This document shows, piece after piece, positions 4,534-4,715 of a stretch of DNA of 5,360 nucleotides. A program made the position numbers and the translations under genes. Source of the DNA: a virus; IMG/VR virus record IMGVR_UViG_3300045988_013481, positions 1 through 5,360 of that record; one strand, written 5' to 3'. How positions within the stretch are numbered: the first letter of the stretch is position 1; each line of letters opens with the position of its first letter. The notes beneath the pieces were generated by a model, which saw only the letters and a list, made by a program, of their open reading frames with translations, was not told where the DNA came from and did not search any database.

Positions 4534-4542
4534 TGTGGAAAA
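4534..4542 (-). promoter_or_regulatory. Exact match to the relaxed DnaA box TTWTNCACA (reads TTTTCCACA on the minus strand)
   Basis: The + strand reads TGTGGAAAA. It is the exact reverse complement of 4707-4715. Confidence 0.4.
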
Positions 4543-4581
4543 CTCATGCTTTTCAACATTTTCAACATACTTTTCAACATC

Positions 4582-4610
4582 ATTATACGCAATAGATTTT
4601 AGTCTGGTAA
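4582..4610 (-). promoter_or_regulatory. Possible secondary promoter between the two repeat clusters
   Basis: Minus strand reads TTACCA(4610-4605)-17 nt-TATAAT(4587-4582). The -10 is perfect and the -35 matches 4 of 6. Confidence 0.25.
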
Positions 4611-4706
4611 AGTGTTTCAACATTTCAACAAGTTTTCAACAAACTTTTCAACATTGAAATATGCTTATTTTTTACGATGTTATGTTTTAAATTTATAGTT
4701 TTCAAC

Positions 4707-4715
4707 TTTTCCACA
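4707..4715 (+). promoter_or_regulatory. Exact match to the relaxed DnaA box TTWTNCACA (TTTTCCACA)
   Basis: Seen directly in the sequence. It is immediately followed by GCCC and the CTA trinucleotide run. Confidence 0.4.

Follow-up and report, generated by a model that had tools for sequence, protein, structure and literature searches.

A candidate DnaA-dependent unwinding module in gut gokushoviruses and the place of two inverted DnaA boxes within it

The DNA discussed here, which we call the window, is the stretch of 5,360 nt that makes up positions 1 to 5,360 of IMG/VR virus record IMGVR_UViG_3300045988_013481. It covers the whole circular genome of a gokushovirus (Microviridae), which has 5287 nt, and its two ends overlap by 73 nt. 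In the sole long non-coding region (4347-4809, from the VP4 stop codon at 4810 to a minus-strand promoter) there are two 9-mers of DnaA-box type in inverted orientation. Replication of microviruses is thought to involve only rolling circles driven by Rep and priming by the host, and the question is what such boxes do in a single-stranded DNA (ssDNA) phage. A preliminary description of the locus proposed that they pair with each other in the infecting ssDNA. We lean, by a small margin over even chances, to the reading that both belong to a set of DnaA-box-type sites, about eleven in number, within a conserved and portable module that resembles a chromosomal origin (oriC) of the basal unwinding system (BUS) type, and at which host DnaA would open the duplex replicative form (RF).

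DnaA-box-type sites and the likeness to basal unwinding systems

The two 9-mers, TGTGGAAAA at 4534-4542 and TTTTCCACA at 4707-4715, are, as had been described, perfectly reverse-complementary and 164 nt apart, and both fit the consensus TTWTNCACA and can be accepted as DnaA boxes. The complementarity is exactly 9 bp, with nothing added by the flanking bases. In first-order Markov simulations of 4340-4815 the mean number of perfect 9-nt inverted pairs was 0.98, with at least one in 48% of simulations, and as a bare pair of this type is thus expected about once by chance, it is the identity of the motif and not the complementarity that carries the significance. TTTTCCACA is present three times in the window (0.05 expected), a number reached in 0 of 200 shuffles, and TTTCAACA eight times (0.28 expected), always on the plus strand and within 4523-4653. 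The boxes were also said to bracket an iteron array, and this is nearly so, the exception being one repeat (4522-4530) to the left of the left box. The third exact TTTTCCACA, at 3121-3129 on the plus strand, is inside the VP3 coding region and probably there by chance.

A scan of IMG/VR with CTACTACNNCTACAACAAG gave more than 100 contigs of microvirus size, and 108 elements were compared. VP1 of these contigs is 41-87% identical to that of the window (41-100% over the genomes of the 108 elements), and VP4 32-97%. When the elements are aligned on the trio region, box-like 9-mers are found in fixed slots (-183, -173, -164, -152, -109, -101, -90, -78, -24 and -16), nearly all in one orientation, towards the trios (mean 4.1 on the plus strand vs 0.23 on the minus strand). 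Canonical boxes (TTWTNCACA, for example TTATCCACA) occupy slot -90 in 27 of the 108 elements and boxes of the TTTTCAACA type in 72, the corresponding figures being 33 and 66 for slot -152 and 34 and 41 for slot -16. Slot -164 also has canonical boxes in other genomes, and slot -173 is nearly always of the TTTTCAACA type. This swapping of the two types within a slot argues for one binding protein, and it means that the “iterons” and “DnaA boxes” of the preliminary description are a single class of site.

Next to the trios, a tandem pair comprising TTTTCAAC and TTTTC(C/A)AC(A/T) at a pitch of 8 nt is present in essentially all of the elements. The spacer that follows is always 4 nt, with mean G+C of 60%, and after it comes CTACTACTAC..CTACAACAAG, with column conservation of at least 90%. 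Relatives L002, L010 and L012 have five consecutive GATs. Over the 24 nt past CAAG the mean A+T is 75%, followed by a region of 58% G+C, and the family plan ends with about 25 nt of A+T-rich DNA and then a GC-rich palindrome. The right box is indeed followed by TAG/GAT trios, and nothing else in the region is as well conserved as this adjacency of box and trios. The module is also carried by close relatives that were picked for similar VP1, among them variants with CTA changed to TTA that obey the 3'-[G/A]A[T/A]-5' trio rule.

Judged by sequence, the module matches the published Firmicutes BUS almost position for position (Table 1). The published tables give the complement strand, which we have converted to the top strand (PMC8287927), and for the orientation of boxes relative to trios we follow the supplementary tables of Pelliciari 2021 and work on C. 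difficile, where the trio is 5'-CACCTACTACTATTACTACTATGA-3' (PMC7561715).

Table 1. Box, spacer and trio sequences of published basal unwinding systems and of the window, top strand
System	Distal box	Proximal box	Spacer	Trios	Source
B. subtilis	TTATCCACA	AATCCACA	GGCC	CTACTATTACTT	PMC8287927
C. acetobutylicum	TTATCAACA	AATCCACA	CTCC	CTACTACTA	PMC8287927
C. botulinum	TTATTAACA	TATCAACA	AGCC	CTACTACTA	PMC8287927
Acetohalobium	TTTTCCACA	AATCCACA	GCCC	CTATTACTA	PMC8287927
Window	TTTTCAAC	TTTTCCACA	GCCC	CTACTACTACGGCTA	

A BUS has an upstream box with up to two mismatches to TTATCCACA and oriented opposite the trio strand; in the window this is the 4707-4715 box, with one mismatch and the orientation of the B. 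subtilis, Clostridium and Acetohalobium entries. A second tandem box, with up to four mismatches and 0-3 bp away, is found as TTTTCAACT at 4699-4707 with three mismatches, and the pair has the same 8-nt pitch and the same orientation as box#6/#7 of B. subtilis incC (TTATCCACA/AATCCACA). BUS spacers can be 0-16 bp and are typically GC-rich and about 4 bp, which is also the published average, and the 4-nt GC-rich spacer of the window is identical to that of Acetohalobium (CGGG/GCCC). The published search rules, with which the window agrees, ask for three or more trios in a row that have A in the middle (NAN), and the window only just has these, its opposite-strand 3'-GAT-5' trios running GAT GAT GAT, GCC, GAT. 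The A+T-rich stretch is directly past the trios, as is the AT-rich 27-mer in B. subtilis, and in both cases there are further boxes upstream, of which one is potentially inverted. With regard to box sequence, TTTTCAACA-type boxes are predicted in Clostridia origins, with TTTCAACA as the proximal box in Butyrivibrio and TTTTCAACA ggt TTTTCAACA in Ruminococcus albus (PMC8287927).

There are also differences from the chromosomal systems. The module of the window is in a 5.3-kb ssDNA phage and not beside dnaA/dnaN, the phage modules have only three to five perfect trios followed by an invariant CAACAAG, the A+T-rich stretch is bounded by a strong GC hairpin, and the module is mobile in both position and orientation. 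Further, most boxes of the window are of the TTTTCAACA variant. Cultured gokushoviruses infect the genus Chlamydophila. In supplementary file 3 of PMC8287927, AAAAGTTGT, which is TTTTCAACA on the top strand, is the standard DnaA-box motif for Chlamydophila pneumoniae AR39, with 47 occurrences in the table.

The likeness suggests that these gokushoviruses recruit the host initiator DnaA. A host factor is indicated rather than a phage protein, as the genome encodes no initiator besides VP4 and its small open reading frames (ORFs) belong to no informative family. DnaA-ATP of the host would fill the array, which has about one box per helical turn, on the double-stranded RF, and the proximal pair would load a DnaA oligomer onto the trio strand. 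The stretch 4742-4766, bounded by the 15-bp hairpin at 4767-4805, would then open to admit host helicase and primase, for DNA synthesis that is independent of the rolling-circle protein VP4. The outcome could be VP4-independent copying of the RF by a theta-type mechanism, perhaps with a plasmid-like carrier state, or it could be help with strand initiation. In B. subtilis incC the proximal boxes are fixed in orientation, and the distal box can have either orientation and be 132-462 bp away, probably acting via a loop (PMC6669920). The left inverted box of the window may likewise be a distal auxiliary box that raises the local DnaA concentration, and because distal boxes work in either orientation it could be inverted, direct or absent among relatives. 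The best reading of its complementarity to the right box is that this is a by-product of both being DnaA boxes.

Several points weigh against a DnaA-dependent module. Most of the 108 elements were gathered with a pattern in which 17 bases of the trio region are fixed, and part of the conservation seen there is due to this selection; the set selected by protein (VP1 similarity) corrects this bias only partly. TTTTCAACA, a putative DnaA box, has A in place of the C that the strict consensus requires at position 6, and the window genome has only three consecutive GAT trios. CTACAACAAGTTATAT is more invariant than is usual for the trios of chromosomal origins and may have an additional or different function. 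When contigs of the genome collection were scanned with CTACTACNNCTACAACAAG, no host copy or prophage was found among the at least 120 matches listed, all of these being chance matches of YYxYNK type in coding sequence and without boxes. Finally, we know of no microvirus that needs DnaA. With regard to the collection pattern in IMG/VR, its matches outside the microviruses were likewise all chance matches in coding sequence.

Pairing of the two boxes in single-stranded DNA

The preliminary description had the two boxes pairing in the infecting ssDNA to give a duplex DnaA box by single-stranded TAG trios, from which complementary-strand synthesis would start by a primosome like the ABC primosome. 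The pair is certainly exact, and the gene-sense strand is the strand with the 3'-GAT-5' trios in the window genome and in about 78% of carriers. The expectation that the 9-bp long-range helix would be favoured did not hold, as it is missing from the minimum free energy (MFE) structure of both strands of 4430-4810 with DNA parameters. We computed MFE structures and partition functions for both strands in five contexts, and over those covering the intergenic region the pair probability of the helix is 3-12%. For the gene-sense strand it is 3-5% for 4347-4809, 5-10% for 4430-4810 and about 25% in a 1388-nt context, and only after trimming to 4520-4730 does it rise above 50%. Thermodynamically the helix could form, as it is 0.1-3.3 kcal/mol above the MFE with occupancy of up to about 25%, but local pairings win: pairing of the left box with the neighbouring repeat at 4522-4530 is more frequent (about 0.4). 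A 9-bp A/T-rich helix that closes a 164-nt loop must also survive single-stranded DNA-binding protein.

Nor are the two boxes kept or covarying among relatives, as the pairing model had anticipated. An inverted canonical box is present in 24 of the 108 elements, always in slot -186 to -189, and absent from the other 84. It is accompanied by a canonical box beside the trios in only eight, all in the clade of the window and with VP1 at least 81% identical to that of the window wherever VP1 could be scored. When seven close relatives are aligned, L001 and L002 are the only ones that share the inverted left box with the window. In L001, which at 96.6% identity over the region is the closest of the relatives, the right box has become TTTTCCACT with no compensating change in the left arm; L023 also has a one-sided, uncompensated change. 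The segment with the inverted box is deleted in L003, L004 and L010, which have a direct-orientation box there instead. RNAalifold on 63 diverse elements gave no consensus structure, with an open chain for both strands.

The model for such pairing is the A site, derived from R6K and used by the ABC primosome (Masai, Nomura & Arai 1990), and the likeness is that a DnaA box could become double-stranded by intramolecular pairing, here in the genome of an ssDNA phage. However the A site is a compact local hairpin, and in the window the arms are 164 nt apart, weakly populated and not conserved. The window thus shows neither a stable single-strand hairpin whose stem holds a DnaA box (the MFE lacks the helix, and its probability is 3-25% across contexts) nor retention or covariation of the arms (eight of 108 elements, with uncompensated changes). 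Local competition and relatives with one box were the outcomes that the preliminary description itself had named as counting against pairing, and both were largely found. The hairpin and primosome are not supported as a conserved mechanism, and we regard pairing in the infecting ssDNA as very improbable. It also sits badly with the inversion of the element relative to the genes in 19-21 genomes.

Arrangement in the genome and other explanations

The module is after VP4 and antisense to the genes in 72 genomes, between VP2 and VP4 in sense orientation in 17, and after VP4 in sense orientation in two. Altogether, 19-21 of about 92-96 genomes have the module inverted with respect to their genes, and there the gene-sense strand is the non-binding CTA strand. 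Cultured Microviridae package the gene-sense strand, and packaging polarity was here inferred from gene sense; on that assumption only genomes with the module antisense after VP4 would present the 3'-GAT-5' strand in the virion. Given that it is found in both polarities and in two positions, the module is most simply seen as an element of the duplex RF. Its A+T-rich end abuts the VP4 gene in both genome arrangements. Judged by distribution the module is accessory, as no cluster of DnaA boxes is present in the non-gut IMG/VR gokushoviruses L289-L324 (4.0-5.0 kb, VP1 44-56% identical to that of the window). These genomes are about 0.5-1.5 kb smaller, and presence of the module correlates with the larger gut genomes.

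The array might bind DnaA without starting replication, either as a sink on the multicopy RF that perturbs initiation in the host or as a DnaA-responsive transcription switch coupled to host growth. In favour of this, each genome carries some ten boxes on an RF that is multicopy, and the perfect minus-strand promoter at 4400 to 4372 is about 120 nt from the array. There is also a phage precedent in the injection-stop region of T5-like phages, which is conserved, non-coding and non-replicative and has about eight DnaA boxes, of which around half have one or two mismatches, as in TTATCAACA (bioRxiv 10.1101/866236). In contrast to the window, the T5 boxes are paired 3 bp apart inside inverted repeats without trios or an unwinding element, the role proposed for them is membrane anchoring and not replication, and T5 is a double-stranded DNA phage. 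In the gokushoviruses conservation is highest in the proximal pair, spacer, trios and A+T-rich stretch, which are needed for unwinding and not for titration or repression, and for this reason we take a sink or switch to be the weaker alternative and rather unlikely. The position of the module relative to promoters also differs between the two genome arrangements.

Another possibility is that the repeats are binding sites for VP4, forming the “bind” locus of a double-strand origin with the nick site in the invariant CAACAAGTTATATA. Direct repeats near the nick site are typical of rolling-circle plasmid origins, and adjacency of the A+T-rich end to the VP4 gene in both arrangements would fit. 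The invariant stretch loosely recalls the phiX174 origin, which we take to be CAACTTGATATTAATAAC, but on comparison of the latter with CAACAAGTTATATA only the 6-nt AACTTG is common to both, on the bottom strand, and as its strand polarity flips between genomes we treat the match as chance. A VP4 site is difficult to reconcile with a repeat that is identical where VP4 is only 32-45% identical and that alternates with canonical DnaA boxes in the same slot. For a rolling-circle origin one looks for fixed polarity and for presence with every homologous Rep, and neither was found, with polarity inferred from gene sense: both orientations relative to the genes occur, though the polarity of the packaged strand is not strictly constrained, and the 4.0-5.0 kb gokushoviruses with comparable VP1 have no array and yet must have a rolling-circle origin. 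We consider binding of VP4 improbable. Least credible of all is that TGTTGAA/TTCAACA is bound by some other host protein such as Spo0A, the element then tying phage activity to sporulation. In Bacillus origins the 0A box of Spo0A, TGTCGAA, does overlap DnaA boxes, a single mismatch separates TTCAACA from TTCGACA, and some members of the Clostridiales, the predicted hosts, form spores. However the mismatch is in the CGAA core, and the alternation with TTTTCCACA/TTATCCACA and the layout of spacer, trios and A+T-rich stretch would be left unexplained. Origins of iteron plasmids and of P1 prophage are a further comparison: in these too a small circular replicon has an A+T-rich region together with direct repeats and DnaA boxes. 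In the window, however, there is no gene in cis for an iteron-binding Rep, the only initiator being the HUH protein VP4, the 9-nt repeats are themselves DnaA-box variants, and no similar plasmid was found in the plasmid collection.

To return to DnaA-dependent unwinding, a bolder version is that gut gokushoviruses spanning several clades captured the origin unwinding module of Clostridia, and that the RF replicates as a DnaA-dependent minichromosome independent of the rolling-circle protein. We offer this tentatively, and think it more likely to be wrong than right. In our literature search on Microviridae or gokushoviruses together with DnaA boxes or oriC nothing relevant was found, the eight-box cluster of T5 being the nearest phage precedent, and as far as that search shows the module would be the first sign of an ssDNA phage recruiting the master initiator DnaA. 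If the RF does replicate as such a minichromosome, “lytic” ssDNA phages that have no integrase would gain a carrier state that resembles a plasmid and is tied to the cell cycle of the host, which would explain the long persistence of gokushoviruses in the gut. The module also provides a testable handle on persistence, through plasmid-like maintenance of the RF, and on host range, as box variants should track the DnaA of the host. For the DnaA field the more than 100 variants are a natural experiment on which BUS features are indispensable, including the 8-nt pitch, the 4-nt spacer, three to five GAT trios, and distal boxes that can be dispensed with or inverted.

The window genome and minor features

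All genes of the window genome are on the minus strand, and their positions and those of the parts of the module are given in Table 2. Megablast gave seven relatives that match over nearly the full length at 84-92% identity; they come from faeces of dogs, pigs and humans.

Table 2. Coordinates of genes and of module features in the window
Feature	Position	Strand	Remarks
VP2	1352..546	-	
VP1	3021..1390	-	
Small ORFs, VP5, VP3	4346..3018	-	
Sigma-70/sigma-A promoter TTGACA-17-TGnTATAAT	4400 to 4372	-	12/12 matches; extended -10 TG
Outermost box-like 9-mer TTTTCAACA	4522..4530	+	slot -201; main competing partner of the inverted box in ssDNA folds
Inverted canonical DnaA box	4534..4542	-	TGTGGAAAA on plus strand, TTTTCCACA on minus strand; read as distal auxiliary box
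Box cluster I: TTTTCAACA at 4550, 4559, 4571	4550..4579	+	pitch 9, 12 nt; slots -173, -164, -152
Box cluster II: GTTTCAACA at 4614, ATTTCAACA at 4622, TTTTCAACA at 4633 and 4645	4614..4653	+	pitch 8, 11, 12 nt; slots -109, -101, -90, -78
Trio-proximal tandem pair TTTTCAAC/TTTTCCACA	4699..4715	+	8-nt start-to-start pitch, one-base overlap
G+C-rich spacer GCCC	4716..4719	+	4 nt
DnaA-trio-like repeats	4720..4740	-	bottom strand 3'-GAT GAT GAT GCC GAT GTT GTT-5'; top strand CTA CTA CTA CGG CTA CAA CAA
A+T-rich stretch	4742..4766		88% A+T over 25 nt; candidate DNA-unwinding element
Hairpin	4767..4805		perfect 15-bp stem, 9-nt loop; between A+T-rich stretch and VP4 stop codon (4810)
VP4	~543..1 continuing 5287..4810	-	340 aa

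The promoter in the region is directed at the small ORFs (4346..3726), and its perfect match together with strong ribosome-binding sites of GAGGTG type suggests a Firmicutes host. Clostridiales are the predicted hosts of gut Gokushoviridae (PMC10159846). In a PHROGs search VP4 is an HUH protein (phrog_942) and VP5 matches phrog_1670, annotated as a DNA-binding protein. No PHROG family matches three of the remaining four small ORFs, and the fourth is phrog_10695, a family with no assigned function, so this search of the small ORFs gave no initiator, and no informative DNA-binding family besides VP5 and VP4. An Rfam search of 4300-4860 gave no credible RNA family, and the best match of the region in a plasmid collection had E = 0.06.

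The 15-bp hairpin is present in every fold and in the centroid, and it is invariant in close relatives. It bounds the module, and may also be a terminator for VP4 or an ssDNA signal. Other clades have in its place different GC-rich palindromes or long alternating CG/TG palindromes, such as GGCATGCGCGCGCGCGCGAAACGCGCGCGCGCGCATGCC in L003, L005 and L010, about 150 nt past the A+T-rich stretch, and some clades have, in addition, an insertion of about 150 nt, for which the annotation is a hypothetical protein. The palindromes and hairpins at the end of the module could be terminators, barriers to forks or unwinding, or true ssDNA priming signals.

To the left of the box array a GC-rich segment (4436-4534) has 88-94% identity in MG945657, KT264788 and KT264789, which otherwise share almost no similarity with the window at the DNA level. 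This segment, which includes an imperfect hairpin (4440-4479), appears to be a second conserved non-coding module and is possibly mobile. In a distant-mode search of a phage collection 63 Pseudomonas phage records match part of 4347-4809, probably over a short segment unrelated to the box array. There is a weak promoter-like site on the plus strand (TTTACG-17-TATAGT, 4671-4699), with TATGGT as the -10 in most relatives. The family consensus from slot -78 to the proximal pair, which is 4654-4698 in the window, is a conserved spacer of about 45 nt with a perfect 12-nt palindrome, TTTAACGTTAAA, and may be a site for an architectural protein.

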